Numbered from the stretch's first letter, positions 5,885-54,891 are shown. The stretch: DNA of 64,000 nucleotides from Actinomycetota bacterium (GCA_035535495.1 DATLQA010000029.1:7447-71446); one strand, 5' to 3'. A program made the numbers and translations. Notes: generated from the sequence alone by a model not told the origin.

Positions 5885-5909
5885 GGAGCGAAGCGTAGCG
5901 CCGCCGGCG

Positions 5910-36425: not shown

Positions 36426-36503
36426 ACCGCACGCTACCGTCGAGTACGGCTGGCTATACTCATGCCCAGCGCGATCCGTCGACGGTCACCACGGGAGCGG
36501 CCA

Positions 36504-37019
36504 ATGGAGCGAGCACTGGTCCTCAACGCCTCGTACCAGCCGATCTGTGTCGTGCCGGTGCGTCGGGCGGTGGTGCTCGTGCTGAAGGAGAAAGCCGACG
36601 TCCTGGTCCCCAGGGACGCGCTGGTGCGGGGTGCCACCATCGCCATCCAGGCGCCGAGCGTGATCCGCCTGCGCTACGTGGTGAAGGTGCCGTTCCGCGC
36701 CAGAGCCGGGCTGTCGCGCCGGGCCGTGTTCGTGCGCGACGACCACACCTGCCAGTACTGTGGCGGCAGGGCAGAGAACGTCGACCATGTCATCCCGCGC
36801 TCCCGCGGTGGCCTGCACGTCTGGGAGAACGTGGTAGCCGCCTGCCGGCGCTGCAACAGCCGCAAGGAGGACCGCCTTCCACACGAGGTCGGCTTCCGGT
36901 TGCGACGCGAGCCACGCGCGCCCAAGGAGACGCTCTGGATCGTGATCGCGGTCGGGCACATCGACCCGGGGTGGGTCCCATACCTCGGCGTCGAGCCGAG
37001 CACGGCGGTCCCGGCCTGA
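36504..37019 (+). CDS. HNH endonuclease (stand-alone)
   Basis: The HNH motif is CQYCGGRAENVDHVIPRSRGG...NVVAACRRCNSRK. Confidence 0.8.
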   Translation: MERALVLNASYQPICVVPVRRAVVLVLKEKADVLVPRDALVRGATIAIQAPSVIRLRYVVKVPFRARAGLSRRAVFVRDDHTCQYCGGRAENVDHVIPRSRGGLHVWENVVAACRRCNSRKEDRLPHEVGFRLRREPRAPKETLWIVIAVGHIDPGWVPYLGVEPSTAVPA

Positions 37020-37048
37020 GGGTTACGACGGGGTTCAACAGGTAGCAG

Positions 37049-37099
37049 CCCGGGGGGTTCGGGGGGCGGGTCGCCCCCGATGAGTCAGGGGGCGGTCCG
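37049..37099 (+). repeat. G-rich GC-hairpin leader element (copy 1): CCGGGGGGTTCGGGGGGCGGGTCGCCCCC then GAGTCAGGGGGCGGTCCG, immediately 5' of the start codon
   Basis: It shares GGGGGG-T[TC]-CGGGGGG and GAGTC-GGGGG-(C)GTCCG with the copies at 45.94 kb and 48.47 kb. Confidence 0.5.
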
Positions 37100-38686
37100 A
37101 TGGCGACCACCGCAGCCGAGATGGCCGGCCGCCTCGGTCAGCGTGTCCGCGTCGTCCTCGCCAGGTCGCGCCGCCCAGCGCTGCTGATCGCCCCGCTGGC
37201 CGCCGGCGCCCTCGGTGCCGTCCTCGCGGTCACGCTGGTCGCCAGGCAGGACGCTGAGATCGGGCCGGCCACGGTGCGCCTGTCCGTGCGCCCGGCCCTC
37301 TCCGGTTCGAGCCGGTTGGCGGTACCACCGTTCGGCTCGGTGTCGGCCCACACCCACGTCGGGCCGCTGCAGTTCCGGGCCACCCTGGACGACGTCGACG
37401 TTGCCCGGCTGAACCAGGCGCTGGCAGAGGACGAGGTGCCAGGCGGCCTGCGCCGCAGCAGCCTGCACACCGCCCTGGCGCCGCTGGAGCAGGACGCGCG
37501 CCAGGCCGCCAGGGAGTTCCTGCTCCGCCTGACCGCGGTCGGGCTCGGCGGCGGCCTGGCCGGGGTGCTGCTGTTCGGGCGGCGCAGCGCCCGCAGGCTG
37601 GCCGGCTGCGCCGCCGGCGGCGCGCTGGCCATGGCGGTGCTGCTGGTCCCGTCGGTGGCCACCTACGACGTGTTCGCCTTCAGGGCGCCGCGGTACGAGG
37701 GTTCCCTGCAATACGCGCCCGCGCTGGTCGGCGACGTCCGCACCGGCTTCGACCGCTTGCAGACGCTCCGCGACGAGATGGCGCGGATCACCGCCAACCT
37801 GAACCGTGCCTACGCGGCCCTCAGCCGGCCGGTGCCGGTGCTCGACGGGAGCACCGTGCGGGTGCTGCACATCGCCGACGTGCATCTCAACCCGGCCGGC
37901 TTCGATCTCGCCGAGCAGCTCGCCGACAAATTCGACGTCGCTGCCGTGGTCGACTCCGGCGACATGGGCACCTGGGGCCTGGCGCAGGAGCGGGGCGTCG
38001 CCCGCCGGGTGCGCGACTTCCGCGTCCCGTACCTGTTCGTCAAGGGCAACCACGACAACCCGGCGATGGTGGCGGCGGTACGGGCCAACCCCAACGCCCG
38101 GGTGCTCGACGACGCCGCCGTCACGGTGAGCGGCATCCGCTTCCACGGCGTGCCCGACCCGGTGTTCTCACCGGGCCAGGGCTTTCGCAACCCCGAGTTC
38201 GAGCGGCTCAAGGAGCGGCGCAGTGTCCAACTGGCCGCCACCCTGGACGGGCAGTCGGTCCGTGCCGACGTGCTGGTGGTCCACGACCCGCTGCTGGCCC
38301 GCTACGCCATCGGGCACGTCGCCACCGTGCTCGAAGGCCACCTGCACAGCTTCGGCTCGCAGGTGGTGAGCGGCACCCGCGAGCTCCGCACCGGCACGGT
38401 GGGCGGGGCGGGCCCGGACGGCCTGCGGGCCAAGCAGCCGGTGCCGTACACCGCCGAGGTGCTCTACTTCGACCCGGACACGCGCCGTCCGGTGGCGGTC
38501 GACCGGATCACCGTCGGCGCGCTGGAATCCTCCTTCTCGGTCGACCGCGAGCTGCTCGACGAAGGCGCCAACGGGTTCGTCCTCGACCCGGTCGAGGTCC
38601 CCGCCGACCTGCTGCCGCCGCCGCAGCCCGACGAGGTCCAGGGCCAGCCGCCCGGGGTCACCGCCCGCCGCCCGCTCGGCGCCTGA
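37100..38686 (+). CDS. Membrane-anchored metallophosphoesterase
   Basis: N-terminal TM helices are predicted. The calcineurin-like motifs are VLHIADVHL, DSGDMG and VKGNHD. Confidence 0.8.
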   Translation: MATTAAEMAGRLGQRVRVVLARSRRPALLIAPLAAGALGAVLAVTLVARQDAEIGPATVRLSVRPALSGSSRLAVPPFGSVSAHTHVGPLQFRATLDDVDVARLNQALAEDEVPGGLRRSSLHTALAPLEQDARQAAREFLLRLTAVGLGGGLAGVLLFGRRSARRLAGCAAGGALAMAVLLVPSVATYDVFAFRAPRYEGSLQYAPALVGDVRTGFDRLQTLRDEMARITANLNRAYAALSRPVPVLDGSTVRVLHIADVHLNPAGFDLAEQLADKFDVAAVVDSGDMGTWGLAQERGVARRVRDFRVPYLFVKGNHDNPAMVAAVRANPNARVLDDAAVTVSGIRFHGVPDPVFSPGQGFRNPEFERLKERRSVQLAATLDGQSVRADVLVVHDPLLARYAIGHVATVLEGHLHSFGSQVVSGTRELRTGTVGGAGPDGLRAKQPVPYTAEVLYFDPDTRRPVAVDRITVGALESSFSVDRELLDEGANGFVLDPVEVPADLLPPPQPDEVQGQPPGVTARRPLGA

Positions 38687-38907
38687 GCGGCCGCCCGCTC
38701 CGGGGGCTCTCCACTTCCCTCCACTTCCGCTCCACCGGTGCGCCGGCGGCCTTCCGGCACGGCTTGACCAGGGCGTCCTCTGGCCGGCTACCCGGCGACA
38801 CCCGGCAATTCGGGCCGTGCTCCCCGGTCGCCGTCGCGCCAAGGGCGTTACACGATTTCCCCTGCTCAATGAGGGTTTTTCGAGGCTGTTTCCGGCCAGC
38901 AAACTCG

Positions 38908-38961
38908 TTGACTGGGGGTGGGTGGTGGAGTAAAGTGGCGGCCGGTGGAGGAAGACGGTGG
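38908..38961 (+). promoter_or_regulatory. Putative Pmra promoter (TTGACT-17-TAAAGT) with GTGG(A/C)G repeats at 10-bp phasing (candidate MraZ boxes)
   Basis: TTGACT lies at ~38908 and TAAAGT at ~38931. GTGGAG, GTGGCG and GTGGAG lie at ~38925, 38935 and 38945, with GTGGGAGG at 38958. Confidence 0.35.
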
Positions 38962-38976
38962 GAGGGTCCGGGGCCG

Positions 38977-39414
38977 GTGTTCATTGGCACTCACGACCAT
39001 TCCCTCGACCCCAAAGGGCGCGTCATCCTCCCGCGCAAATTTCGCGACGAGCTGGGACAGGACATGGTCTTCACCAAGGGCATCGAGCGCTGCCTGTACG
39101 TCTTCCCGCTCGCCGAGTTCCAGACCTTCGCGGACAAGCTGCGGAGCCTGCCGCTGACCGAGCGCCCCAGCCGCGACTTCGTCCGGGTGTTCATCGCCGG
39201 TGCCAGCCAGGAGACCGCCGACGCCCAGGGCCGGGTGGTGATCCCGCAGCCGCTGCGCGACTACGCCGGCCTCGCCAAGGACATCGTGGTCGTGGGCCAG
39301 CTCTCCCGGGTGGAGATCTGGGACCGCGCCGAGTGGGAGCGCTACATCCCGCTCGCGCAGGCCGCCTACTCCGAGCAGGCCAACGCCGCCCACCTCGCCG
39401 AGCTGGGGATCTGA
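38977..39414 (+). CDS. mraZ: Transcriptional regulator MraZ
   Basis: The GTG start is VFIGTHDHSLDPKGRV. The two MraZ repeats are DPKGRVILP and DAQGRVVIP. Confidence 0.9.
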   Translation: MFIGTHDHSLDPKGRVILPRKFRDELGQDMVFTKGIERCLYVFPLAEFQTFADKLRSLPLTERPSRDFVRVFIAGASQETADAQGRVVIPQPLRDYAGLAKDIVVVGQLSRVEIWDRAEWERYIPLAQAAYSEQANAAHLAELGI

Positions 39415-40445
39415 TGGTGTTGACCAGCGTGCCAACGCATCAGCCGGTGATGCTCGACCGCTGTGTCGAGCTGCTGCGGCCGGCCTCGACCCGCGTCTGG
39501 GTCGACGCCACCCTGGGCCTCGGCGGTCACGCCGAGGCCCTGCTGGACGCGAGCGAGCCGGACGGCCGCGTGGTCGGGCTGGACCGCGACCCCGCCGCGC
39601 TGGCACTGGCCACGGAGCGGCTGGCGCGCTTCGGCGACCGCCTGGTCCCGGTGGCGGCCTCCTTCGCCGACCTCGGCTGGGTGGCGGAGGAGCTGGGCCT
39701 CGACGCCGTCGACGGCGTCCTGTACGACCTCGGCGTCTCCTCACTGCAGCTGGACGAGCCGGAGCGGGGCTTCAGCTACCGCCACGACGCGCCCCTGGAC
39801 ATGCGCATGGACCCGGGCGGCCGCGTGACCGCGGCGGAGGTGGTCAACACCTACCCGCGTGCGGAGCTCGCCCGGGTGCTGCGCACCTACGGCGAGGAGC
39901 GCTTCGCCGGCCGGATCGCCCGCTTCGTGGAGGAGGCCCGCCGCCGCGCGCCGGTGCGGACCACCGGGGAGCTGGTCGACCTGATCAAGGCCGCCGTCCC
40001 CGCGGCGGCCAGGCGCTCCGGCCCGCACCCGGCGCGGCGCACCTTCCAGGCGCTGCGCATCGACGTCAACGGCGAGCTGGCTGCCCTGGAGGCGTCGCTG
40101 CCGCAGGCGATCGACCTGCTCGCGCCGGCAGGGCGGGTGGTGGTGCTCAGCTACCACTCGCTCGAGGACCGGATCGTCAAGCGGACCTTCGCCGAGGCGG
40201 CCGGCCGCGCGCCGGCCGTCCCCGGGCCGCCCCTGCCGGCGCCACCGGCGCGGTTGCGGTTGCTCACCCGGCGTCCCGAGACGCCGGATGCTGCCGAGGT
40301 CGCCGCCAACCCTCGTGCCGAGAGCGCCAAGCTGCGCGCCGCCGAGAAGCTCGGCGGCGTACCGGGCGGCCAGCCGCCCGCCGACCCGTCCGATACCGGT
40401 CCCGCCGCCCCGCGCTGGACCCCGACCCGTAGGGGGGCAGCATGA
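39414..40445 (+). CDS. rsmH: 16S rRNA (cytosine1402-N4)-methyltransferase RsmH
   Basis: The ATG overlaps the mraZ stop (TGATG). The SAM motif is DATLGLGGH and YHSLEDR is present. Confidence 0.95.
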   Translation: MVLTSVPTHQPVMLDRCVELLRPASTRVWVDATLGLGGHAEALLDASEPDGRVVGLDRDPAALALATERLARFGDRLVPVAASFADLGWVAEELGLDAVDGVLYDLGVSSLQLDEPERGFSYRHDAPLDMRMDPGGRVTAAEVVNTYPRAELARVLRTYGEERFAGRIARFVEEARRRAPVRTTGELVDLIKAAVPAAARRSGPHPARRTFQALRIDVNGELAALEASLPQAIDLLAPAGRVVVLSYHSLEDRIVKRTFAEAAGRAPAVPGPPLPAPPARLRLLTRRPETPDAAEVAANPRAESAKLRAAEKLGGVPGGQPPADPSDTGPAAPRWTPTRRGAA

Positions 40446-40921
40446 GCATGGCCGCGCCTGGCCACGCCACCTCGACCCGTCCGGCCCAGCGGCAGCCGCC
40501 GCCACGCCGGCTGCGCGCCGTCGCGCCCGTGCGACGGCTGCCGCGACCGCTGTTCGTCCTGCTCACCCTCGGCCTGGCGGTCGCCGGCGTGCTCGGCCTG
40601 GTGACCCTCAACGTCAACGTGAACCAGCAGGCCTTCGAGATCGCCCGGTTGTCGCGCGCGAACCGCGAAGCCGAGCGGCGCTACACCATCTACCAGGCGG
40701 AGGTCGACCGGCTCAAGGCACCGAGCCGCATCGCCGAGGTGGCGGCGAGGCGCGGCATGGTCCCCGCCGGCCGGCCCCGGATCATCGCCTGGCCAGGTGG
40801 TGGCAAGCCGGCCGCGGGATCCCGGGGGGCGGCGACTTCCCCCGCCTCCCCCGGGACCCGCCCGGACGGCGGCTGGGCGCAGGACCCCTTCCCACTCAAG
40901 CCGTACCTCGCCCAGCCATAG
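40442..40921 (+). CDS. ftsL: Cell division protein FtsL-like (septum formation initiator family)
   Basis: ATGA overlaps rsmH. The product is a single-TM bitopic protein with a coiled-coil region, in the conserved dcw position. Confidence 0.7.
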   Translation: MSMAAPGHATSTRPAQRQPPPRRLRAVAPVRRLPRPLFVLLTLGLAVAGVLGLVTLNVNVNQQAFEIARLSRANREAERRYTIYQAEVDRLKAPSRIAEVAARRGMVPAGRPRIIAWPGGGKPAAGSRGAATSPASPGTRPDGGWAQDPFPLKPYLAQP

Positions 40922-40927
40922 CAGCAC

Positions 40928-41018
40928 CCCCCGGAGGCTCCTTCCCTGGCCTCCGGGGGTGAACCGCCGACCTGCCTCAAGGTCAGCAGGACCGGGCCGC
41001 GCCCCCAGCGCGGCCCGG
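40928..41018 (+). other. Two strong GC hairpins in the 185-nt ftsL-ftsI spacer (11-bp perfect stems)
   Basis: The first is CCCCCGGAGGC-N10-GCCTCCGGGGG (~40928-40959). The second is CCGGGCCGCGC-N5-GCGCGGCCCGG (~40992-41018). Confidence 0.4.
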
Positions 41019-41106
41019 TCGAGCAGTCGGAACAGCGTTCGTGAGCGGCGCCAGGTCGGCGAGAAGGTCGCGAGCGGCTCAGCCAGTGAGGGAAGGGGGG
41101 AAGCAC

Positions 41107-42879
41107 GTGCCGAGCGGACGAGGTTCCGCCAAGCGCCGGCGGCGCCGCCGGCGCGCCCGTGGCGGCGGTCCCGGCCGCGGTGACGGCGGCAAGCGCCTGC
41201 TGGTCGTGCTCGGCGCCACCGTCCTCGCCTTCCTGGCCATCACCGGCCGGCTGGTCGTCCTGCAGGTGGTCGACGCCACCTCGCTCGACGAGGCGGCGGC
41301 CAGGCAGCGCCTGCGCACCATCGAGCTGCCCGCCGACCGCGGCCGGGTGTTCGACCGCAACGGCAGCCACCTGGCCCTGTCGGTCGACGCGCGGGCCGTC
41401 TACGCCCAGCCCCGCCTGGTCCGCAACCCGGACGCCACCGCCCGGCGGCTCGCCCCGCTGCTGCCCCGGCCGGTCGCCGACCTCCGCCGCCGGCTCGCCT
41501 CCAAGCGCCCATGGGTGTACCTGGCCCGCCGGGTGCCCGCCGCCCGCGGCGACCGCGTGGCGCGGCTCAAGCTGCCCGGCATCGGCGTGCTCGACGACAC
41601 CGTGCGGAGCTACCCCTCCGGCCCGCTCGCCGCGCAGGTGCTCGGCTTCGTCGACGTCGACGGCAAGGGCCTGGCCGGGGTGGAGCAGCAGTACGACGGC
41701 CTGCTTCGCGGCCGCTCCGGCGAGCTCCTGCTCGAGCAGGACCCGAAGGGCCGTCCGATCCCCTCGGGGCAGCGCCGCCTGAAGCCGCCGACGCCAGGCA
41801 CCGACATCGTGCTCACCGTCGACCAGCCGCTCCAGTACGTCGCCGAGCGGGCACTGTACGAGGCGGTCAGAAAGAACCACGCCAAGGGCGGCTCGGTGGT
41901 GGTCCTCGCGCCCTCCACCGGCGAGGTCCTGGCCATGGCCAACCTGCCCGACTACGACCCTAACCGCTACGCCAAGGCCACCGCGACGGCGCGGCGCAAC
42001 CGCGCGGTCGAGGACGTGTTCGAGCCGGGCTCGACCAACAAGACCATCACCGCGGCCGCGGCCCTGGAGGCGGGCGTGGTCACCCCGGGCACGCAGCTGC
42101 GCGTCCCCTGGGCCTTGGAGCTCTGCCCTGGGGTGAAGACCTTCCACGATTCGCACAAGCACGCCCAGGAAGTGCTGTCCTTCGCCGACGTGGTGGCGCA
42201 GTCCTCCAACGTCGGCACCATCAAGGTGGCCAGCAAGCTCGGCAAGCGGCGCCTGGCACAGGCCGAGCTGGACTTCGGGTATGGCCGGCGCACCGGCATC
42301 GACCTGCCGGGCGAGTCCCCCGGGCTGGTCACCCCCATGCCGGCCTGGCGCTGCACCGACCTGGGCGTCAACGCCATCGGCCAGGGCGTGGCCGTGACCG
42401 TGCTGCAGGCCGCCGGCGTCTACGCGGCCGTGGCCAATGGCGGCGTGCAGGTGGCGCCGTCGCTGCTGAGGGGCACGATCGACGCCGGCGGCCGCTTCCA
42501 GCCGGCCGAGCGCCGGCCGAGCCGCCGGGTCATCTCGGAGCGGACCGCCACCACCCTCACCGCCATCCTCCAGGGCGTGCTCACCGGCCACGGCACCGGC
42601 AAGGAGGCCGCGCTCGGCGCCTGGACGGCCGCCGGCAAGACCGGCACCGCCCGCAAGCCCAACCCGCACGGCCGCGGCTACCTGCCCGGCGCCTACGTGG
42701 CCAGCTTCATCGGCTTCGCCCCGGCCGAGCACCCGGCCGTGGTGGTCGCGGTCGTGCTCGACCAGCCGACCCCCATCTTCGGCGGGGTGGTCGCCGCCCC
42801 GGTCTTCCGCGAGGTGGCCAGCTATGCCCTCACCCGACTCCGGGTGCCAGCCTCGCTGCCGGCCCGCCGGCAGCGGTGA
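41107..42879 (+). CDS. ftsI: Penicillin-binding protein (FtsI/PBP3-type transpeptidase)
   Basis: The GTG start follows GGAAGGGGGG. An N-terminal TM helix and PBP dimerisation domain are followed by the transpeptidase motifs STNKT, SSN and KTGT. Confidence 0.9.
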   Translation: MPSGRGSAKRRRRRRRARGGGPGRGDGGKRLLVVLGATVLAFLAITGRLVVLQVVDATSLDEAAARQRLRTIELPADRGRVFDRNGSHLALSVDARAVYAQPRLVRNPDATARRLAPLLPRPVADLRRRLASKRPWVYLARRVPAARGDRVARLKLPGIGVLDDTVRSYPSGPLAAQVLGFVDVDGKGLAGVEQQYDGLLRGRSGELLLEQDPKGRPIPSGQRRLKPPTPGTDIVLTVDQPLQYVAERALYEAVRKNHAKGGSVVVLAPSTGEVLAMANLPDYDPNRYAKATATARRNRAVEDVFEPGSTNKTITAAAALEAGVVTPGTQLRVPWALELCPGVKTFHDSHKHAQEVLSFADVVAQSSNVGTIKVASKLGKRRLAQAELDFGYGRRTGIDLPGESPGLVTPMPAWRCTDLGVNAIGQGVAVTVLQAAGVYAAVANGGVQVAPSLLRGTIDAGGRFQPAERRPSRRVISERTATTLTAILQGVLTGHGTGKEAALGAWTAAGKTGTARKPNPHGRGYLPGAYVASFIGFAPAEHPAVVVAVVLDQPTPIFGGVVAAPVFREVASYALTRLRVPASLPARRQR

Positions 42880-43045
42880 TGTCACCTTCTCGTATCGCCT
42901 CGGCGGCACCGGCCGGGCCCGGGCACGTTGCCAGAGCGCTGATGCTAGGCTTTCGCCGGCCGCCGCCCCGGCGGCGGCCGCAAGCCCACGGCACCGGCGT
43001 TCCCGCAGCCGGCCGCCCTGCCCTTCGACGCGGGTTTGGACGTTC

Positions 43046-44560
43046 ATGACCTTGACGCCCAGGCGCGTCCTGCTCGGCTCGCTGGCCGCCGCCACCGGCG
43101 GTCGAGTCACAGGCGGCGGCGAGGTCCACGTCACCGACGTCGTGCTCGACACCCGCACCGTCACCCCTGGGGCGCTGTTCTGCTGCGTGCCCGGCTCCAA
43201 GGTCGACGGCCACGACCTGGCCGGCGCCGCCCTCGAGGCCGGCGCCGCCGCCCTGGTGGTGGAGCGGCCGCTCGACCTGCCCATCCCGCAGCTGCTGGTG
43301 GGCTCGGTCCGGGCCGCGCTGGCGCCGCTGGCCGACGCCTTCTGGGAGCACCCGTCGCGCCGCTTCGACCTGGTGGGGGTGACCGGCACCAACGGCAAGA
43401 CCACCACCACGTTCATGCTGGAGGCGATCTTCAGGGCGGCCGGGCGCACCCCCGGGGTGATCGGCACCGTCGAGGTGCGCCTGGGCGACGAGCGCCGCCC
43501 GGTCGCCCACACCACCCCGGAAGCCCCCGACCTGCAACGGCTGCTGGCCGAGATGGCGGACAGCGGCGTCGAGGCCGCGGCCATGGAGGTGTCCAGCCAC
43601 GGACTGGCGCTCGGGCGGGTCGACCGCACCTGGTACCGGGCGGCGGTGTTCACCAACCTGACCCAGGACCACCTCGACTTCCACGACGGCCTGGAGGACT
43701 ACTACCAGTCCAAGCGCAAGCTGTTCACCAGCGCCTTCACCGGCCTCGGGATCGTCAACGCGGACGACCCCTACGGCCGCCGCCTGGCCGGGCCGGACGC
43801 CGGCATCCCGGTGGTCACCACCGGCACCGGCCCCGGGGCGACCTGGAGGGCGTCGGTGGTGGAGGCGACCCTGGCCGGCACCAGCTTCCGGCTGGACAGC
43901 CCCGCCGGCCCGGCCGCCGTCCGGCTCCGCCTCGCCGGGCAGTTCAACGTCGCCAACGCGCTCGGCGCCCTGGCCGCGGCGGACGCGCTCGGCATCGACC
44001 TGGCCACCGCGGTGGCCGGTCTCGCCAGCCTGGCGGGGGTGCCCGGCCGCTTCGAGCGGGTCGACGTCGGCCAGCCGTTCACCGTCCTGGTCGACTACGC
44101 GCACACGCCCGACTCGCTCGACAACGTGCTGCGCGCCGCCCGGGCGGTGAGCGAGAAGCGGGTGATCGTGGTGTTCGGCTGCGGCGGTGACCGCGACCGG
44201 GCCAAGCGCCCGCTGATGGGGGCGATCGCCGGCCGCCTCGCCGACCTGGTGGTGGTCACCTCCGACAACCCGCGCTCGGAGCGGCCGGAGGCGATCGTCG
44301 ACGAGGTGGTCGAGGGGGTGCGCCGCAGCGCCGAGCCGGACGCGTGGTGGGCGACGGTCGACCGCCGCGCCGCCATCGCCGAGGCGCTGGCCGCCGCCGG
44401 GCCCGGTGACGCGGTGGTGATCGCCGGCAAGGGCCACGAGCATGGCCAGGAGTTCGAGGGCGGCCGCAAGGTGCCGTTCGACGACCGGGTGGTGGCGGCG
44501 GAGGAGCTCAGCCGCCTGCTCGGCGCCGCCGGCGCCGTCGAAGGCAGTGGCGCCTCGTGA
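43046..44560 (+). CDS. murE: UDP-N-acetylmuramoyl-L-alanyl-D-glutamate--2,6-diaminopimelate ligase
   Basis: Mur ligase motifs are GVTGTNGKTTT, the DNADD region and HTPDSL. Confidence 0.95.
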   Translation: MTLTPRRVLLGSLAAATGGRVTGGGEVHVTDVVLDTRTVTPGALFCCVPGSKVDGHDLAGAALEAGAAALVVERPLDLPIPQLLVGSVRAALAPLADAFWEHPSRRFDLVGVTGTNGKTTTTFMLEAIFRAAGRTPGVIGTVEVRLGDERRPVAHTTPEAPDLQRLLAEMADSGVEAAAMEVSSHGLALGRVDRTWYRAAVFTNLTQDHLDFHDGLEDYYQSKRKLFTSAFTGLGIVNADDPYGRRLAGPDAGIPVVTTGTGPGATWRASVVEATLAGTSFRLDSPAGPAAVRLRLAGQFNVANALGALAAADALGIDLATAVAGLASLAGVPGRFERVDVGQPFTVLVDYAHTPDSLDNVLRAARAVSEKRVIVVFGCGGDRDRAKRPLMGAIAGRLADLVVVTSDNPRSERPEAIVDEVVEGVRRSAEPDAWWATVDRRAAIAEALAAAGPGDAVVIAGKGHEHGQEFEGGRKVPFDDRVVAAEELSRLLGAAGAVEGSGAS

Positions 44561-46047
44561 TCCCGCTCAGCCTCGACGAGGTCGCCGCGGCAGCGGGCGG
44601 CGTGCTGCGCGACGCCGACCCGGGCACGCTGGTCACCTCGCTGACGATCGACTCCCGGGTGGTGGCGGCGGGCGGGCTGTTCGTCGCCCTGCCCGGCGAG
44701 CGCACCGACGGCGCCCGCTTCGCCGCCGACGCGCTCGCGGCCGGCGCCGCGGCCGTGCTGGCCAGGCGCGGCGCGGTCACGGCCGGGCCACGCGTCGAGG
44801 TCGACGACCCGCTCACCGCGCTGGCCGCGGTGGCCGGCGAGGTGCGGTCCCGGTCGGCCGCCAGGGTCGTCGGCATCACCGGGTCGGTCGGCAAGACCAC
44901 CACCAAGGACCTGCTCGCGGCGGTGCTGGCCACGCGCCTGCGCACCGTGGCCAACCAGGCCTCGTTCAACAACGAGCTCGGCCTGCCGCTCACCCTGGCC
45001 CGGCTCGAGCCGGACACCGAGGCCCTGGTGGTCGAGCTGGGCGCGCGCGGCCCCGGCCACATCGCCGCCCTGGCCCGGGTCGCCCGGCCGGTCCTCGGCG
45101 TGGTCCTCAACGTCGGCGAGGCCCACCTCGGCGTGTTCGGCTCGCGGCAGGCCATCGCCGACGCCAAGGCCGAGCTGGTCGAGGCGCTCCCCTCCGACGG
45201 TGTGGCGGTGCTCGCCGCCGACGACCCGATCGTGGCCGCCATGGCCGGCAGGACCGAGGCCAGGGTGGTCAGCTTCGGCCTCGGCCCGGCCGCGGAGGTG
45301 CGCGCCGAAGGGGTCGAGCTGGACGGGGACGGCCACGCCCGCTTCCGGCTCAGCACCCCGGCCGGCTCGGCCGCGGTGGCCATGCCCGCCATGGGCGAGC
45401 ACCTGGTCCGCGACGCCCTCGCCGCGGCGGCCGCCGCCGGCGTCTTCGGCCTGGCCGTCGAGGAGATCGCCGCCGGGCTGGCCGGCGCCCGCCTGTCGCC
45501 CATGCGCATGCAGGTGGAGCGCCGCCCTGACGGCGTCACCGTGATCAACGACGCCTACAACGCCAACCCCACCTCGGTGACCGCCGCGCTCAAGGCGCTG
45601 GCCGCCGCCGGGCGGGGCGGCGGCCGCACGGTGGCCGTGCTCGGCGAGATGGCCGAGCTGGGCGAGGCCGCCCAGGTCGAGCACGACCGGGTCGGCCGGC
45701 TGGCCGCCCGTCTCGGGATCGACCGGCTGGTCGGGGTGGGGGAGCTGGGCGAGATCCTGGTCAGGGCGGCCCGCATGGAGGGCATGTGGCCGGAGGAGGC
45801 GGTGGCGGTGGCCGACGCCGACGCCGCCGTCGCGGCCGTCGCCGGCGTGCTCGCCCCAGGTGACGTGGTCCTGGTCAAGGCGAGCCGGGCGGTCGCCTTG
45901 GACAGCGTGGCGAATCGGCTCCTCATTGAGCCGAATGTGCCCACCGGGGGGTCCGGGGGGCTCAAGAAGCGGAGCGGTAGCCCCCCGGTCAACAGGGGGT
46001 CCGGGGGGGCGGGGGTTGCCCCCCCGGTGCATCGGGGGAGTAGGTAA
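44557..46047 (+). CDS. murF: UDP-N-acetylmuramoyl-tripeptide--D-alanyl-D-alanine ligase, with a ~35-aa Gly/Pro-rich C-terminal tail encoded by a repeat element
   Basis: GTGA overlaps murE. GITGSVGKTTT is present. The ORF reads through the hairpin repeats up to a TAA 1 nt before mraY. Confidence 0.95.
   Translation: MIPLSLDEVAAAAGGVLRDADPGTLVTSLTIDSRVVAAGGLFVALPGERTDGARFAADALAAGAAAVLARRGAVTAGPRVEVDDPLTALAAVAGEVRSRSAARVVGITGSVGKTTTKDLLAAVLATRLRTVANQASFNNELGLPLTLARLEPDTEALVVELGARGPGHIAALARVARPVLGVVLNVGEAHLGVFGSRQAIADAKAELVEALPSDGVAVLAADDPIVAAMAGRTEARVVSFGLGPAAEVRAEGVELDGDGHARFRLSTPAGSAAVAMPAMGEHLVRDALAAAAAAGVFGLAVEEIAAGLAGARLSPMRMQVERRPDGVTVINDAYNANPTSVTAALKALAAAGRGGGRTVAVLGEMAELGEAAQVEHDRVGRLAARLGIDRLVGVGELGEILVRAARMEGMWPEEAVAVADADAAVAAVAGVLAPGDVVLVKASRAVALDSVANRLLIEPNVPTGGSGGLKKRSGSPPVNRGSGGAGVAPPVHRGSR
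45941..46027 (+). repeat. G-rich GC-hairpin element (copy 2, two hairpins): CCGGGGGGCT-N16-AGCCCCCCGG and CCGGGGGGGC-GGGGGTT-GCCCCCCCGG
   Basis: Both are perfect 10-bp stems read directly. They lie within the murF 3' end, immediately 5' of the mraY GTG. Confidence 0.5.
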
Positions 46048-47115
46048 GTGGTCGGCATCCTGGTCGCCGCGGCCGTCGCCCTGGCCATCGGGCTGGTGGG
46101 CACGCCGCTGGCCATCCGGAGCTTCCGCCGGCACAACCTCGGCCAGCTCATCCAGGTCGACCTGCCCGACTCTCACCAGACCAAGCGGGGCACCCCGACC
46201 ATGGGCGGGGCGGTGATGATCCTCGGCGCGGTGGCCGGCTATGGCGTCGCCCACCTGCTGATCGACGTCCGCCTCACCTCGCGCGGCCTGCTGGTGATGA
46301 TCACCATGATCGCCCTCGGCGTGGTCGGCTTCGTCGACGACTACCTCAAGATCCGCAACCAGCGCAGCCTCGGCCTGACCAAGACCGCCAAGTTCGGCGG
46401 GCAGGCCCTGGCCGCGGTCGGCCTCGCCGTCGGGGCGTGGTACTGGACGGACGCCTTCCGGGGCGTCTCCTTCATCCGCCCGCTCACCGGCACCACCCTG
46501 CCGCTGCTGCTGTTCCTGATCTGGGTGTTCCTGATCCTCTCGGCCACCTCCAACGGGGTGAACCTGACCGACGGCATGGACGGGCTCGCCTCCGGCTCCA
46601 CCGTCCTGGTGGTCAGCGCCTACGTGGTGATCGCCTTCTGGCAGTTCCGCCACTCCTGCTCGGCGCCGCCGATCGACACGCCCGGCTGCTACCGGCTGGA
46701 GGCGACCGGCTCGCTCGACCTGGCGGTGGTGGCGGCCGCCATGATGGGCGCGACCGCCGGGTTCCTGTGGTGGAACGCGCCGCCGGCGCGGATCTTCATG
46801 GGCGACACCGGCTCGCTCGCGCTCGGCGGCACCCTGGCCGCGCTGGCCCTGTTCACCGACACCCAGCTGCTGCTGGCGGTGCTCGGCGGCATCTACGTGG
46901 TGGAGACACTCTCGGTGATCCTGCAGATCGCCTCGTTCCGCTTCCTGCACCGCCGGGTCTTCAAGATGGCCCCGATCCACCTGCATTTCGAGCTGTCGCA
47001 GTGGCCGGAGTTCACCGTCATCGTGCGCTTCTGGATCCTGGCCGGCCTGGCGGTGGCCTTCGGCCTTGGCCTGTTCTACGCCGAGTTCATCACCCGCGGG
47101 GGGACGAGTGGCTGA
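46048..47115 (+). CDS. mraY: Phospho-N-acetylmuramoyl-pentapeptide-transferase
   Basis: Ten TM helices are predicted. Characteristic segments are DDYLKI, NLTDGMDGLA and the HLHFEL region. Confidence 0.95.
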   Translation: MVGILVAAAVALAIGLVGTPLAIRSFRRHNLGQLIQVDLPDSHQTKRGTPTMGGAVMILGAVAGYGVAHLLIDVRLTSRGLLVMITMIALGVVGFVDDYLKIRNQRSLGLTKTAKFGGQALAAVGLAVGAWYWTDAFRGVSFIRPLTGTTLPLLLFLIWVFLILSATSNGVNLTDGMDGLASGSTVLVVSAYVVIAFWQFRHSCSAPPIDTPGCYRLEATGSLDLAVVAAAMMGATAGFLWWNAPPARIFMGDTGSLALGGTLAALALFTDTQLLLAVLGGIYVVETLSVILQIASFRFLHRRVFKMAPIHLHFELSQWPEFTVIVRFWILAGLAVAFGLGLFYAEFITRGGTSG

Positions 47116-48565
47116 GTGGGGGATTGCTGGCACGCCCGTGCTGGTCGCGGGGCTGGGCGCGTCCGGCCGTGCGGCGGCGCGGCAGCTGGCCGCGCTCGGG
47201 GCCGACGTGCTGGCCTGCGACGACGCACCCGACCTGGACGTGGCCGAGCTGGACGCGGCCGGGATCAAGACCCACCTCGGGCCCGGCTCGGTCGAGCTGC
47301 TCGAAGGCCGGCGGCTCCTGCTGGTCGCGCCGGGCCTGCCAGAGGGCCACCCGTTGATCCAGGCCGCCCTCGGCGCCGACGTGCCGGTCTGGAGCGAGGT
47401 GGAGCTGGGTGTCCGCCTGGCCCGCATGCCGCTGGTCGGGGTGACCGGCACCAACGGCAAGACCACCACCACCGAGCTGGCCGCGGCCATGCTGAACGCC
47501 AGCGGCCTGCACGCCGTGGCCGCCGGCAACGTCGGCCGGCCGCTGGTCGACGCCGTGGTGGCCTCCCCGGCGCCCGAGGCGGTCGTGGTCGAGCTGTCCA
47601 GCTTCCAGCTGCGCTTCACCCACAGCCTCCGCCTGGCCGCCGGGGCCTGGCTCAACCTCGCCCCCGACCACCTCGACTGGCATCCCGACCTGGACGCGTA
47701 CGCCACCGCCAAGGCGCGGGTCTGGGCCAACCAGCGCGGCGACGACTGGGCGCTCTACCCGGCCGACGACCCGGTGGTCGCCGCCTACGCCGCCGCCGCG
47801 CCCGGCCGGCGGGTGCCGTTCTCGACCGGCAAGGCCGAGGCGGGCGGCCTCGGGGTGGAGGCCGGCATCGCCCTGTCGCGCATCCCCGGGGTGGAGGGCG
47901 GGCTGTGGCGCGCGGCCGCGCTGCGCCTGCCCGGCCGCCACAACCTGGCCAACGCGCTGGCCGCGTCCGGTCTGGCGCTGGCGCTCGGCGCCCACCCGGC
48001 GGCCATGGCCAGGGCGGTGGCCGCGTTCCGGCCGGGCCCGCACCGCCTGGCGGAGGTCGGCGAGGTCCGCGGGGTTGCGTTCGTGGACGACTCCAAGGCG
48101 ACCAACCCGCATGCGGCCGTCCAGGCGATCGCGGCCTTCCCGCGGGTCGTCTGGATCGCCGGCGGCCGCAACAAGGGCCTCGGCTTCGACCAGCTGGTCG
48201 CGGCCGCCCTGCCCCGGCTGGTCGGGGCGGTGCTGATCGGCGAGGCGGCGGACGAGCTCGGCGCCGCCCTCGACCGCGCCGGCTTCACCGGCCCGGTGGC
48301 CAGGGCGGCGTCCATGGGCGAGGCCGTCACGGTCGGCTTCGGCCTGGCCGAGGCGGGCGACACGGTGCTGCTGGCGCCGGCCTGCGCCAGCTTCGACATG
48401 TTCACCGACTACGCCGAGCGTGGCCGCGCCTTCGCGGCCGCCGTCGCCCGCCTGGCCGACCGCCATGCCGGGGGGGCGCGGTTTGCCCCCCCGGAGAGTC
48501 GGGGGTCCGGGGAAACGTTTTCAGCTCCTGCGGAGGACGACGGTCATGGCGACCGGCACCCGTGA
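47108..48565 (+). CDS. murD: UDP-N-acetylmuramoylalanine--D-glutamate ligase
   Basis: The probable GTG start overlaps the mraY end by 8 nt. GVTGTNGKTTT is present. The C-terminal tail again covers the repeat element and overlaps the ftsW start by 20 nt. Confidence 0.9.
   Translation: MAEWGIAGTPVLVAGLGASGRAAARQLAALGADVLACDDAPDLDVAELDAAGIKTHLGPGSVELLEGRRLLLVAPGLPEGHPLIQAALGADVPVWSEVELGVRLARMPLVGVTGTNGKTTTTELAAAMLNASGLHAVAAGNVGRPLVDAVVASPAPEAVVVELSSFQLRFTHSLRLAAGAWLNLAPDHLDWHPDLDAYATAKARVWANQRGDDWALYPADDPVVAAYAAAAPGRRVPFSTGKAEAGGLGVEAGIALSRIPGVEGGLWRAAALRLPGRHNLANALAASGLALALGAHPAAMARAVAAFRPGPHRLAEVGEVRGVAFVDDSKATNPHAAVQAIAAFPRVVWIAGGRNKGLGFDQLVAAALPRLVGAVLIGEAADELGAALDRAGFTGPVARAASMGEAVTVGFGLAEAGDTVLLAPACASFDMFTDYAERGRAFAAAVARLADRHAGGARFAPPESRGSGETFSAPAEDDGHGDRHP
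48468..48512 (+). repeat. G-rich GC-hairpin leader element (copy 3): CCGGGGGGGC-GCGGTTT-GCCCCCCCGG then GAGTCGGGGGTCCGGGG
   Basis: The stem is identical to the second hairpin of copy 2. It lies ~35 nt 5' of the ftsW ATG. Confidence 0.5.
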
Positions 48566-50003
48566 GCCGCGCCAAGCCGCCCAGCCGCCCGGGCTGGGGC
48601 CGGGTGCCGTGGCCGCCAGGAGGGACAGCCGGCCCGCGCCGCGGCTCGGCTCCAGCTACTACCTGATCCTCGCCCTGATCGGCACCCTGCTCGCCGTGGG
48701 GCTGGTGATGGTGCTGTCGGCGTCCTCGGTGGCCGCCTTCGCCCGCACCAACGACTCCTACACCTACCTCAAGCGCCAGGCCATCTGGGTCGGGATCGGG
48801 CTGGTGCTGATGTTCGCGGTCAGCCGGGTCGACTACCGGTTCTGGCGCCGCCTCGCCGTCCCCCTCCTCGGGGTGGTGTTCCTGCTGCTGCTGGTGGTGC
48901 TGGTCCACCCGGCCGCGGTGACCGCGTCCGGCTCGACCCGCTGGATCCGGCTCGGGCCGATCACGCTGCAACCCGCCGAGCTGGCCAAGCTGTCGCTGCT
49001 GCTGTTCGCCGCCGACGTGCTGGTGCGCAAGGAGCGCCTGCTCGGCGACGTCCGCCACCTGCTCGTCCCGGTGCTGCCGGTGATGCTCGCGCTGGCCCTG
49101 CTGGTCCTGGCCGAGCCCGACCTCGGCACCACCATGCTGCTGTGCGTGATCGGCTTCGCCATGCTGTTCCTGGCCGGCACGCCCGTCCGCATCCTCGGCG
49201 CCATCGGCCTGATCGGCCTGGTCGGCGCGTCCACCACCATGCGCGGCTACCAGCGGGCCCGGCTGGCCGCCTTCCTCGACCCGGGCGGCGACCCCCAGAA
49301 CACCGGCTTCCAGCTGCTCCAGGGCCACCTCGCGTTCGGCTCGGGCGGGCTGCTCGGGGTCGGCCTCGGCCAGAGCAGGCAGAAGTGGTCGTTCCTGCCC
49401 AACGCCCACACCGACTTCATCTTCGCCGTGATCGGCGAGGAGCTCGGCCTGATCGGCACGCTCGCCGTCCTGGGCATGTTCATCACCTTGGGCTACGCCG
49501 GCGTGCGGGTGGCGCGCCGGTCGGCCGACCCGTTCGGCCGCTACCTCGCCGGCGGGATCACCGTCTGGATCATGGTCCAGGCGCTGGTCAACCTCGGCGC
49601 GGTGGTCGGCCTGCTGCCGATCACCGGCGTGCCGCTGCCGCTGGTCTCCTTCGGCGGCTCCAGCATGCTGGTCCTCCTGGTCGCCATCGGCATGCTGCTC
49701 AACCTGGCCAAGCAGGAGGCATGGCGGCCGCGGTCGGCGGTGCTGGCGACGGCCGCGCCGGCCGAGCGGCGGGACCGGCGCCGCCCCACCGCCACCGTGC
49801 CGCACCGGGCGGCGGCCGGCAGGGCCGCCGGACCGACCCGTGGCGGCCGCGGCACCAGCCTGTCCGGCTCCCGGACGTCCGGCGCGCGCCGGCCCCCGGG
49901 CGGTGCGGAGGGCCGCCGCACGACGTCCGGCCGGACCGGCCCGGACGCGCGGCGGCGCCGCGGAGCCCAGAGCAAGAAGGACCGCCGCAGGAGGGAACGC
50001 TGA
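48546..50003 (+). CDS. ftsW: Peptidoglycan glycosyltransferase FtsW (SEDS family) with a long Arg-rich C-terminal tail
   Basis: SEDS motifs and 10 TM helices are present. GGAGGA precedes the ATG. Confidence 0.9.
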   Translation: MATGTREPRQAAQPPGLGPGAVAARRDSRPAPRLGSSYYLILALIGTLLAVGLVMVLSASSVAAFARTNDSYTYLKRQAIWVGIGLVLMFAVSRVDYRFWRRLAVPLLGVVFLLLLVVLVHPAAVTASGSTRWIRLGPITLQPAELAKLSLLLFAADVLVRKERLLGDVRHLLVPVLPVMLALALLVLAEPDLGTTMLLCVIGFAMLFLAGTPVRILGAIGLIGLVGASTTMRGYQRARLAAFLDPGGDPQNTGFQLLQGHLAFGSGGLLGVGLGQSRQKWSFLPNAHTDFIFAVIGEELGLIGTLAVLGMFITLGYAGVRVARRSADPFGRYLAGGITVWIMVQALVNLGAVVGLLPITGVPLPLVSFGGSSMLVLLVAIGMLLNLAKQEAWRPRSAVLATAAPAERRDRRRPTATVPHRAAAGRAAGPTRGGRGTSLSGSRTSGARRPPGGAEGRRTTSGRTGPDARRRRGAQSKKDRRRRER

Positions 50004-51454
50004 TGACCGCTGAGGAGACCCGCCGGCCGGGCCGCGGCCGGGAGGGACCCCGCGTGCTGGTCGCCGCCGGCGGCACCGGCGGCCACGTGGTGCCCGGGCT
50101 GGCCCTGGCGCGCGCGCTGGTCGAGCGCGTGCCGACCGCGACGGTGAGCTTCGCCGGCACCAGCAGGGGGATCGAGACCCGGGTGGTGCCCGAGGCCGGG
50201 TTCGGCCTCCACCTGCTGCCGATCCTGCCGCTGTCGCGCCGGCTCGCCCTCGAGACGGTGCTGGCGCCGCCGGCCGCCGTGGCCGGCGCCGGCGCGGCCC
50301 TGCGGCTGCTCCGCCGCGAGCGGATCGACGTGGTCGCCGGCATGGGCGGCTACGTCACCCTGCCGGTGGCCGCCGCCGCCAGGATGGCCGGCCTGCCGGT
50401 GGTGCTGCACGAGTCGAACGCCGTGCCTGGCCTGGCCAACCGGCTGGCCGCGCGCTTCGCCAGCCGCGTCGGCGTCGGCGTGGCCGCCGCGATCGAGGCC
50501 TTCCCGCCAGGCAAGGCGGTGATGGTCGGCAACCAGGTCCGGCCCGAGCTGGTCCGGCTCGACCGGGCCTCGCTCCGCACCGAGGCCCTGGCCACGTTCG
50601 GCCTGGAGTCGCGGCGCCGCACCCTGTTCGTGTTCGGCGGCAGCCAGGGCGCCAGGCGCATCAACCAGGCCCTGGTCGCCGCGACCGCGCACTGGCCGGA
50701 GCCGGGCGGCATGCAGGTGCTGCACGCCTGTGGGCGGCGCGACGAGGCCGACGTGCGATCGGCGTGGCGCGCGGCCGACCCCGAGTCGCGCGGCCTGCTG
50801 GTCCGGGTGGTGGCGTTCGTCGACCGCATGGACCTGGCCTACGCCGCCGCCGACCTGGCGGTCACCCGGTCCGGGGCGATGACCATGGCGGAGCTGACCG
50901 CGGTCGGCATGCCGGCGGTGTTGGTCCCGCTGCCCCACGCGGCCGCCGGGCACCAGACCGCCAACGCCCGCGCCGCCGCCGACGCCGGCGGCGCGCAGGT
51001 GATCGACGACGCCCACCTGGACGGGCCGGCCCTGGCGGCGACCGCCGCGCCGCTGCTCGCCGATCCCGGCGAGCTGGCGCGCATGGGCAAGGCCATGCTC
51101 GGCCTGGCCCGGCCGCGGGCCGCCGAGGAACTGGCCGGGCTGGTCCTCGGCGCCCTGCCACCAGGCAAGCGCCCACCGGCGGCCGGCGGCGGCGCCGACC
51201 AGGCCGCCGATCTCGCCACCACCCAGGAGTTCGTCAACTGGTTCGGCCCCGAGCGGGCCAGCCCGGCGGTGCCACGCCAGGCCGAGCCGCCCGCCCGCCC
51301 CGGCCTCGGCCTCACCGGCACGCCCGGTGGCGACCGGCCGGCCGAGAGGGGCGGTGGCCCAGCCGCCGACCAGCCCGCCGAGCCAGGGACCGACCTCGGC
51401 AGCACGGCGGAGTTCGAGGCCTGGTACCGCGACGACGACCAGGAGGAGCGGTGA
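50003..51454 (+). CDS. murG: UDP-N-acetylglucosamine--N-acetylmuramyl-(pentapeptide) pyrophosphoryl-undecaprenol N-acetylglucosamine transferase, with a ~110-aa disordered C-terminal extension
   Basis: The ATG overlaps the ftsW TGA. GGTGGHVVPGLALA is the G-loop. The tail carries a duplicated (T/S)T(Q/A)EF(V/E)(N/A)W(F/Y) motif. Confidence 0.9.
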   Translation: MTAEETRRPGRGREGPRVLVAAGGTGGHVVPGLALARALVERVPTATVSFAGTSRGIETRVVPEAGFGLHLLPILPLSRRLALETVLAPPAAVAGAGAALRLLRRERIDVVAGMGGYVTLPVAAAARMAGLPVVLHESNAVPGLANRLAARFASRVGVGVAAAIEAFPPGKAVMVGNQVRPELVRLDRASLRTEALATFGLESRRRTLFVFGGSQGARRINQALVAATAHWPEPGGMQVLHACGRRDEADVRSAWRAADPESRGLLVRVVAFVDRMDLAYAAADLAVTRSGAMTMAELTAVGMPAVLVPLPHAAAGHQTANARAAADAGGAQVIDDAHLDGPALAATAAPLLADPGELARMGKAMLGLARPRAAEELAGLVLGALPPGKRPPAAGGGADQAADLATTQEFVNWFGPERASPAVPRQAEPPARPGLGLTGTPGGDRPAERGGGPAADQPAEPGTDLGSTAEFEAWYRDDDQEER

Positions 51455-53957: not shown

Positions 53958-54015
53958 TCCGGCGGCCGACCTGGCACCGCGCCCGGACCGCCGCCCCGGC
54001 CTGGCTGGTGGCGGC

Positions 54016-54891
54016 GTGACGCAGCGAACCGACTCCCGTACCCGCCCGGGCAGGGGCGGGAAGCGGCCGGCGGCCCGGCCGGCCGCGCCCGACCGCCGCA
54101 TCGCCGAGCGGCGGCGCGAGGTGGTCCGCGAGCGGGTGCGGCGGCGGCGCCGGCAGCTGGCCTGGTGCGTGGCGCTGATCCTGGCCGCGGTCGGCGTGTC
54201 GAAGCTGGTCGCCTCGCCCCTGTTCGGGCTCTCCGCCGTCCGGGTCCGCGGCACCATGGTGCTGAGCGAGGACGAGGTGCTGGCCGCGTCGGGCGTCCGC
54301 GTCGGGGAGCCGTACCTCTCGGTCGACCTGGCGGCGATCCGCCACCGGCTCGAGGCGATGCCGTGGGTGGGCCACGCCGAAGTCCGCCGCGACTACCCCT
54401 CCAGCCTGCGCATCACCGTGGCGGAGCGGACCCCGGTGGCCTCGATCGTCGCGGCCAGGCGCTACTGGCTGGTGGCGGCGGACGGGGTGGTGCTGAAGGC
54501 GGCCACCGCCAAGCCGCCGGGGGTGCCGTTCGTCGCCGACGTCCCGGTCCCCGCCGGGGTTGGCCCAGGTGCCCGGCTGCCGGCCGGCGGGCCCCTGTCG
54601 AACGCGATCGACGCGCTCGGCGGGCTCCGGCCCGAGCTGGCCAGGCTGGTCGTGGCCGTGCAAGCGCGCTCGGTGGACAGCCTGCAGTTCCGCCTGCGCG
54701 GGGGCATGCGGGTCCTCTACGGGCTCGCCGCCGACCAGCCGGCCAAGGACACGGCCGTGCTGCTGATCTCCAACAAGCTCAAGCGAGAGGGAAGGAAGGT
54801 GGTGCTGATCGACGTCCGCAACCCGTCCGCACCGACGGTGGCCGGGGAGCAGCGAAGGGCGGTGGTTGACCGGGCTGTGGGCCGCCGGTAG
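54016..54891 (+). CDS. ftsQ: Cell division protein FtsQ (POTRA domain)
   Basis: A basic N-terminus is followed by one TM helix and a POTRA-like region. It is in the conserved position before ftsZ. Confidence 0.8.
   Translation: MTQRTDSRTRPGRGGKRPAARPAAPDRRIAERRREVVRERVRRRRRQLAWCVALILAAVGVSKLVASPLFGLSAVRVRGTMVLSEDEVLAASGVRVGEPYLSVDLAAIRHRLEAMPWVGHAEVRRDYPSSLRITVAERTPVASIVAARRYWLVAADGVVLKAATAKPPGVPFVADVPVPAGVGPGARLPAGGPLSNAIDALGGLRPELARLVVAVQARSVDSLQFRLRGGMRVLYGLAADQPAKDTAVLLISNKLKREGRKVVLIDVRNPSAPTVAGEQRRAVVDRAVGRR

Follow-up and report, generated by a model that had tools for sequence, protein, structure and literature searches.

Copies of a probable dispersed, hairpin-forming repeat family at gene junctions of an actinobacterial dcw cluster

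The window analysed here is a 64,000-nt stretch of DNA from an Actinomycetota bacterium (GCA_035535495.1, DATLQA010000029.1:7447-71446) with a G+C content of 75%. Its plus strand carries a division and cell wall (dcw) cluster in the order HNH endonuclease gene, metallophosphoesterase gene (MPE), mraZ, mraW, ftsL, ftsI, murE, murF, mraY, murD, ftsW, murG, murC, murB, ftsQ and ftsZ. The FtsZ encoded here is identical to that on an ENA soil-metagenome contig (L001), and the closest MurF proteins all come from metagenome-assembled genomes (MAGs) of uncultured 'Actinomycetes bacterium'. At the junctions upstream of MPE, mraY and ftsW, a first reading of the sequence (the original prediction) had recognized G-rich, GC-palindromic hairpin elements, with a partial relative in the ftsQ-ftsZ spacer, and had proposed an attenuator, processing or translational-control element internal to the dcw operon, with a genome-wide repeat like the REP (repetitive extragenic palindromic) elements as a fallback. 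Our analysis favours the fallback: with a probability of about 0.75, the elements are copies of a short, dispersed family of hairpin-forming repeats and not a control element specific to dcw.

The bases quoted in the original prediction are present at all four places, and their hairpin is far more frequent than chance allows: CCGGGGGGGC-N7-GCCCCCCCGG occurs twice in the window against 0.03 occurrences expected from shuffled sequences, as does the strict hairpin pattern CCGGGGGG-N5-15-CCCCCCGG (2 against 0.03). By contrast, GGGGGTCCGGGG is not rare when one mismatch is allowed (8 found, 4.6 expected), but its three exact matches all lie within elements. A covariance model built from relatives finds more than the three loci and one partial relative first described, namely six copies on the plus strand (5863-5919, 37050-37092, 45944-46000, 46001-46039, 48459-48506 and 55048-55104), with scores, from highest to lowest, of 78.1, 45.8, 38.9, 26.4, 18.0 and 18.0 bits; the region 45941-46047 consists of two tandem units, and the copy at 5863-5919 is the sixth. 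The same copies are present in the independent assembly L001, with one substitution in the loop of the hairpin at 46001-46027, and they are therefore not an assembly artefact. A generic repeat finder run on the window does not place the family among its top 20 direct-repeat families, which are dominated by Mur-ligase paralogy and GC-rich chance matches.

Units of the family share the ends G6-TCC-G6 ... C6-GG and have nested interiors. The interval between the second G-run and the C-run clusters at 9 nt (form B, exemplified by 46001-46027 and 48468-48494), at 20 nt (form A, 43 nt, as at 45946-45988) and at 49-56 nt (a 79-nt long form). Three size classes with the same ends are the pattern expected of internal-deletion derivatives of one element. 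The fuller form B consensus, G7-TCC-G7-C-GCTTGYT-G-C7-GG-TCGATCGGG, describes most of the metagenome matches listed, and in form A the 5' half, GGGGGGTCCGGGGGGCTC, is conserved though it lies outside the pattern used for searching. Form A also occurs in tandem arrays (L023, L038, L053 and L115) whose period, 48 or 51 nt, is in either case divisible by three. Other tandem arrays consist of short-loop variants (L004 at about 16850-16900, L112 at 3789-3900 and L139 at 10118-10290) with periods of about 39-40 and 59 nt; the period in L139 is not a multiple of three, and some of these arrays are antisense to the local genes.

The best copy in the window is the form A unit at 45944-45994 (78.1 bits, E = 1.6e-15), whose core at 45946-45988, GGGGGGTCCGGGGGGCTCAAGAAGCGGAGCGGTAGCCCCCCGG, has about 40 near-identical copies elsewhere; its stem, CCGGGGGGCT/AGCCCCCCGG, encloses a 16-nt loop, and it is translated within the MurF tail as ...GGSGGLKKRSGSPP... 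A form B unit follows in tandem, 48 nt away, at 45995-46039 (18.0 bits), with its hairpin CCGGGGGGGC-GGGGGTT-GCCCCCCCGG at 46001-46027, inside murF and 18 nt before the stop. The second form B unit, at 48468-48512, has the hairpin CCGGGGGGGC-GCGGTTT-GCCCCCCCGG at 48468-48494, then GAGAGTC and the truncated start of a next unit, GGGGGTCCGGGG, at 48501-48512; it is translated as the MurD tail ...AGGARFAPPESRGSG... Upstream of MPE, a short-loop variant occupies 37050-37092 (26.4 bits, E = 7e-4) and reads GGGGGG-TTC-GGGGGGCG-GGT-CGCCCCC, so that the related stem first noted here, GGGGGGCG-GGT-CGCCCCC, is indeed found at 37061-37078. The ftsQ-ftsZ spacer holds a decayed form A unit at 55048-55104 (45.8 bits, E = 3e-8), with eroded G-runs on the 5' side and an intact 3' half, AGCGAAGCGGTAGCCCCCCGG; the 17-mer AGCGGTAGCCCCCCGGT that it was said to share with the murF-mraY element is common to 45973-45989 and 55076-55092. 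The claim that every hairpin is followed by GAGTC-GGGGG applies to the copies before MPE and ftsW and to no other.

The sixth copy, a degenerate form A unit at 5863-5919 (plus strand; 38.9 bits, E = 1e-6), is antisense between two minus-strand genes, one at 5913-8012 for a PASTA Ser/Thr kinase and the other, AP_endonuc_2 or endonuclease-IV-like, at 5000-5884. The latter gene has a possible ATG that coincides in part with the CTCATGG of the unit: its longest open reading frame (ORF) opens at the ATG at 5882-5884 (minus strand) made by the antisense CTCATGG. A downstream GTG (MRVGAHVS...) suits an endonuclease-IV-like N terminus better, and the annotated start may be an over-extension induced by the repeat.

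The elements were first described as leaders just 5' of start codons. This description fits the copy before MPE, which lies in the spacer between the stop of the HNH-endonuclease gene (37019) and the start of MPE (37100-38686, plus strand; PF00149, PF12850), but the copies at murF-mraY and murD-ftsW fall within the upstream reading frames, those of murF and murD, with no preceding stop. The murF ORF (44557-46047, plus strand) stays open through 45941-46044 up to the TAA at 46045-46047, and the GTG of mraY (46048-47115, plus strand) directly abuts it; its last ~40 codons, from about 45928 to 46044, encode a repeat-derived tail (...PTGGSGGLKKRSGSPPVNRGSGGAGVAPPVHRGSR, ending at the stop) that 461-residue homologues lack. 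Likewise, the murD ORF (47108-48565, plus strand) is open through 48468-48512 up to the TGA at 48563-48565, 20 nt into ftsW (48546-50003, plus strand), and its tail is repeat-encoded from about 48467 (...HAGGARFAPPESRGSGETFSAPAEDDGHGDRHP, ending at the stop). An independent gene call on L001 concurs, giving a MurF of 496 aa and a MurD of 485 aa, that is, with the tails included.

Nor does the element supply the Shine-Dalgarno (SD) sequences, as had been suggested. The G-run of the copy before ftsW lies 41-45 nt upstream of the ATG, whereas ftsW has a distinct SD of its own, GGAGGA at 48531-48536. The G-run at 37088-37092 is the native SD of MPE: GGGGGG 7 nt before the ATG is kept in L003 and L005, both of which are without the hairpin. 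For mraY, the SD GGGGGAG is at 46034-46040 in the window, and the element-free L005 has GGGGAG 7 nt before the GTG.

It had also been suggested that the G-tracts could fold as G-quadruplexes. The tandem form B unit contains four tracts of three or more G with short loops at 45995-46015, in line with the canonical motif (loops of 1-7 nt), but the other five window copies are not reported by a G-quadruplex scan, the form A consensus has only two G6 runs, and each copy has a complementary C-run that allows a competing G:C hairpin of 8-11 bp. That the family acts through G-quadruplexes in DNA or mRNA is thus very improbable.

The dispersal of the family over many contigs bears out the fallback of a genome-wide repeat. 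When the form A 21-mer AGCGNAGCGGTAGCCCCCCGG was scanned against 185,579 species-representative genomes, it was found at 34 loci, 32 of them on contigs of Actinomycetes/Actinomycetota MAGs, including 10 different contigs of MAG DASUZB01 (also the source of the dcw locus L005) and 5 of MAG JASLBL01; no named Mycobacterium genome among these representatives matched. A match in Pseudomonadales was rejected as chance, the remainder of the element being absent. One further match is on a contig labelled as an Acidobacteria MAG (JACQXY010000043.1, L023), where three perfect tandem form A units with a 48-nt period occupy 5644-5800; this array reflects either a mis-binned actinomycete contig or transfer of the repeat beyond the clade. 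In metagenomes, the form B pattern CCGGGGGGGC-N7-GCCCCCCCGG has at least 120 matches, mostly in contigs of 73-79% GC. A different repeat, in contigs of 44-58% GC (L058, L076, L082, L104, L154 and L155), has the same CCGGGGGGGC-N7-GCCCCCCCGG hairpin followed by GTATCGGGGCCGGCGCGGGCATAGCCCGCGCCGG, with several copies per contig. Neither form was found in the viral collections searched, no Rfam family reaches its gathering threshold anywhere in the window, and a literature text search with the repeat sequence returned only an unrelated primer, and keyword searches gave nothing relevant on actinobacterial families of REP or of MITEs (miniature transposable elements with inverted repeats). As far as these scans show, the family is confined to a clade of uncultured, high-GC soil Actinomycetes.

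At orthologous junctions the element comes and goes. In the HNH-MPE spacer, the hairpin is present in the window only and absent from L003, L004 and L005; between murD and ftsW, the element is present in the window and in L003 and absent from L004 and L005. The murF-mraY junction has no unit in L005, one in L003, L004, L007, L017, L032 and L034, and two in the window, and the ftsQ-ftsZ spacer has none in L004, one decayed unit in the window and about three decayed tandem units in each of L003 and L005. At murC-murB, two assemblies with identical MurF (L002 and L003) differ by exactly one 51-nt unit (one against two), which gives MurC proteins of 529 and 546 aa. The dcw-junction copies are not conserved fixtures. 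In L034 (CAVTCL010000020.1, 282-360), a long-read MAG, the murF frame seems to run into mraY without a stop; this apparent fusion may be a homopolymer-length error at the G/C runs.

These comparisons bear directly on the idea that the element is a dedicated cis-regulatory leader of the dcw operon, whether as an attenuator, an RNase processing site or a supplier of SD sequences. Five of the six window copies do lie in or beside the cluster, within about 18 kb and just 5' of start codons (post hoc binomial P of about 0.01, or about 0.02 with the tandem pair counted once), and relatives also have copies at various dcw junctions. However, the same element adjoins unrelated genes genome-wide, the occupied junctions vary among relatives, some of which have none at murF-mraY or murD-ftsW, copies lie within translated ORFs, and the G-runs used as SD predate the element. 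Moreover, no terminator-like site, that is, a hairpin followed by a T-run, is present at any element in 36500-56400. The leader reading is largely refuted by the distribution, and we regard it as highly improbable. A dcw operon offers many tight, co-oriented junctions, and this is the simplest explanation of the clustering. The 8-kb flanks of the DASUZB01 loci from the genome scan contain additional form A copies, about 6 in about 75 kb or roughly one per 10-12 kb, and the window density (6 per 64 kb) is in the same range.

To relate the units to genes, we oriented form A with its G-run first and judged the flanking coding strand and frame from third-position GC; a gene caller based on the same statistic missed some genes, and the context of each unit was taken from local frame statistics instead. 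The commonest arrangement, seen for about 21 units, is that of murF: the upstream frame remains open across the unit and ends 11-30 nt beyond it, at a stop that overlaps or abuts the next start (ATGA or GTGA, a -4 overlap, in at least 10). For 7 units the upstream stop is just before or inside the unit, 11 units are in-frame inserts deep in an ORF, 10 lie in non-coding spacers upstream of a co-oriented gene and 3-4 are antisense. Form A is thus biased to the sense strand (about 49 sense to 3-4 antisense) and concentrated 8-30 nt upstream of start codons. For form B, about 37 sense and 42 antisense units among the matches listed show no preference. The random spread, including coding regions, that the original prediction would have taken as evidence against a control element is therefore found only in part: the family is widespread and enters coding regions, but its placement is non-random. 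Genes adjoining or containing units include topA, NAD-GDH-like, dnaE-like, truB-like, thiL-like and MMPL-type genes; where a stop precedes the unit in two orthologous loci, the ATG of a CTCATGG variant starts the downstream thiL-like ORF.

Many copies are translated, which raises the question of whether the peptide itself is selected, as a flexible Gly/Ser/Pro-rich tail or linker on MurF, MurD and other proteins. All 7 units in the six intragenic inserts examined are read in the frame ...GGSGGLKERSGSPP..., and the one in topA (DNA topoisomerase I) is a 15-residue insertion relative to PDB 6ozw. At the murF-mraY junction, by contrast, the DNA is read in different frames in different lineages: among 120 MurF homologues (69-93% identity), 73 have a short C terminus and 42 a long one, with repeat peptides of the GGSGGLKERSGSPP type in 9 and of the GGPGGSGSGAVAPR type in 15. 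Use of two frames of the same DNA indicates that the family is conserved as DNA and not as protein. With many homologues free of the tail and other copies in non-coding spacers or antisense, selection for the peptide is scarcely credible as the reason for the family.

Each unit can fold, as predicted, into an 8-11 bp G:C hairpin with energies of -22 to -30 kcal/mol. The consensus fold of 37 form A copies has a 10-bp stem and a consensus energy of -21.8 kcal/mol, and the consensus sequence is predicted to fold at -30.4 kcal/mol by way of the first G-run, which would give form A two alternative 5' arms. No compensatory pair was found among the 37 copies, a result that is uninformative either way, since the copies vary too little and the search pattern itself dictated the 3' arm. 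Single-sequence fold z-scores lie between -0.8 and -1.9, with +1.3 for the ftsQ-ftsZ copy, and are unremarkable because runs of G and C are retained in the shuffles. From subfamily to subfamily, the second pair of the stem is T-A (48), G-T (53), G-C (17), C-G (10) or a G-G mismatch (22), which weakly suggests that pairing may be maintained beyond the homopolymers.

Taken together, dispersal and polymorphism point to a repeat that is probably mobile and akin to mycobacterial interspersed repetitive units (MIRU), REP sequences and Rickettsia palindromic elements (RPE), and as far as the literature search reached it looks like an undescribed member of this known kind of interspersed repeat. The family would have spread either as a non-autonomous element mobilized by some enzyme or by tandem duplication and recombination. 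Surviving copies would be those that passed a filter: two of the three frames are open, the tandem periods of form A are multiples of three, the Gly/Ser/Pro-rich peptide would be harmless, and native SD sequences and stop-start coupling would be left intact. On murF and murD, ribosomes would have to open G:C hairpins of 10-11 bp before they terminate at or over the start of mraY or ftsW, so that coupling would be kept. Any effect on mRNA stability or ribosome speed would be a by-product and not a conserved device for dcw control.

Several observations weigh against this account. No mobilizing enzyme and no target-site duplication were found in the loci examined, where single copies have no evident flanking direct repeat, and no autonomous parent, in the form of an unpaired 5' end with a long insert, turned up in about 1.2 Mb of loci (whole genomes were not searched); mobility is therefore inferred from distribution and polymorphism only. 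Across six MAGs, identity is 94.6% in the core, compared with 81% in the murF 3' coding flank and 89% in the mraY 5' coding flank, a comparison that is inflated since four of the six loci were chosen by the exact 21-mer; the difference could be a sign that some role at the level of RNA or translation is under selection. The sense bias of form A, which is missing from form B, could likewise mean a selected function rather than tolerance, and the location of five of six window copies in or next to dcw could reflect a preference for long, tightly coupled operons.

The chief competitor is accordingly an exapted RNA function of the whole family, in which REP-like sense hairpins would block 3'-5' decay, slow ribosomes near the stop or tune coupling, and selection would maintain the sequence and orientation of form A. 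We consider this unlikely, though less so than any other alternative. The sense bias (about 49:4), the concentration of units 8-30 nt before starts, the high conservation of the core across species, the predicted stability of the hairpins (-22 to -30 kcal/mol) and a second stem pair that varies among T-A, G-C, C-G and G-T yet stays mostly pairable are all in its favour, and reviews describe REP sequences as multifunctional and MIRU as tied to translational coupling (PMC3184786, PMC12548453). On the other hand, the 37 aligned sequences hold no compensatory change and the z-scores reach only -0.8 to -1.9; form B has no orientation bias, intergenic copies decay, close relatives lack the element at the same junction, and many copies are deep in ORFs, where such a role makes little sense. 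More doubtful still is a version restricted to form A, as translation-adapted hairpins selected in the sense orientation only before stop-start overlaps, or with a sense bias that arose from RNA- or transcription-linked spread. If it were true, form A would make downstream initiation depend on an upstream ribosome melting the hairpin, and would constitute a portable module for coupling or pausing, employed in many operons (dcw among them) by an abundant uncultured soil lineage.

The reading as a dispersed, frame-tolerated repeat has its closest precedent in MIRU (Supply et al. 1997, summarized in PMC3184786 and PMC12548453), which reviews propose to survive where reading frames and stop-start coupling are respected. 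Both families are actinobacterial repeats present at dozens of loci per genome, MIRU being 40-100 bp and the units here having a form A core of 43 nt and a long form of up to 79 nt; form B, a 27-nt hairpin with flanks, is shorter than the MIRU range. MIRU lie inside operons between co-oriented genes and run along transcription, as form A does (about 49:3-4) but form B does not (37:42). An ORF runs through the MIRU with its stop and start overlapping the flanking genes (-4), comparable here to the murF TAA followed by the mraY GTG and to murD overlapping ftsW, and tandem copy number varies between MIRU-bearing strains much as the 51-nt and 48-nt periods and the one versus two units of L002 and L003 indicate. 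There is nevertheless no demonstrated sequence relationship to MIRU. The core here is a near-perfect hairpin of G and C homopolymers; the frame of the upstream gene usually continues across the unit, whereas MIRU contain a separate mini-ORF; many units are internal in-frame inserts; the short-loop form occurs in both orientations; and the hosts are uncultured soil lineages and not Mycobacterium.

RPE (Ogata et al. 2000, summarized in PMC10969869) resemble the family in being palindromic and inserted in frame in unrelated housekeeping genes, as translated inserts and terminal extensions, but they are AT-rich, about 100-150 bp long and found in an alphaproteobacterial parasite, whereas the present units measure 27-79 nt, have an extremely high GC content and occur for the most part at gene junctions. 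REP sequences and bacterial interspersed mosaic elements (BIME) of Enterobacteria and Pseudomonas, which are associated with RAYT transposases, are likewise GC-rich imperfect palindromes (20-45 nt) of high copy number at gene ends within operons; form B shares their occurrence in both orientations and form A their GTAG tetranucleotide. REPs are, however, extragenic by definition, while many units here are translated inside ORFs, and the GTAG that precedes the stem in REPs is found inside the form A loop, adjoining the 3' arm, while form B loops (for example, GCTTGCT) lack it. The arrays here are direct tandems, and no RAYT gene or inverted REPIN doublet turned up, although whole MAGs were not scanned. 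Finally, MITEs that fuse in frame with host ORFs (RUP/BOX/Correia/ERIC type; PMC3184786, PMC10969869) have terminal inverted repeats, here the 8-10 bp hairpin arms, and nested internal-deletion derivatives with the same ends, and they extend the 3' or 5' ends of ORFs; the present units are much shorter than typical MITEs, and no target-site duplication or parent insertion sequence was identified in the loci examined.

On this favoured reading, the Gly/Ser/Pro-rich C-terminal tails of MurF, MurD, MurC and other proteins should be annotated as repeat-encoded and not as functional domains or regulatory leaders, and the same holds for the odd inserts that these MAGs have in their TopA, NAD-GDH-like and DnaE-like proteins. 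With this family, the phenomena known from MIRU and RPE would reach into uncultured soil Actinomycetes of very high GC content. Variation in tandem copy number could serve as a strain marker in metagenomes, and it is worth following up how sharply a sense-only form contrasts with one that shares its ends and is neutral in orientation.

Other features of the window are separate from the repeat. The only sigma-70-like promoter match in 36500-56400 is TTGACT-17-TAAAGT at 38908-38936 (plus strand), ~40 nt ahead of what is probably the mraZ start (GTG at 38978), which is the expected place of the main dcw promoter. Between the phosphoesterase gene and mraZ, L002 and L003 carry two additional small genes (2749-3705), one with weak AbiEii/DUF6036 matches, which suggests a toxin-antitoxin-like pair; in the window, a spacer of ~290 nt (38686-38978) is all that separates them. 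The ftsL-ftsI spacer contains two perfect inverted repeats on the plus strand, CCCCCGGAGGC/GCCTCCGGGGG (11 bp) at 40928-40959 and GACCGGGCCGCGC/GCGCGGCCCGGTC (13 bp) at 40990-41020, which are unlike the repeat family in sequence and are not followed by a T-run. Downstream of the cluster, a DivIVA-family gene (PF05103; ORF 58979-59932) has six head-to-tail copies of a 33-nt (11-codon) period at 59330-59560 (plus strand), a coding repeat of the coiled-coil region.

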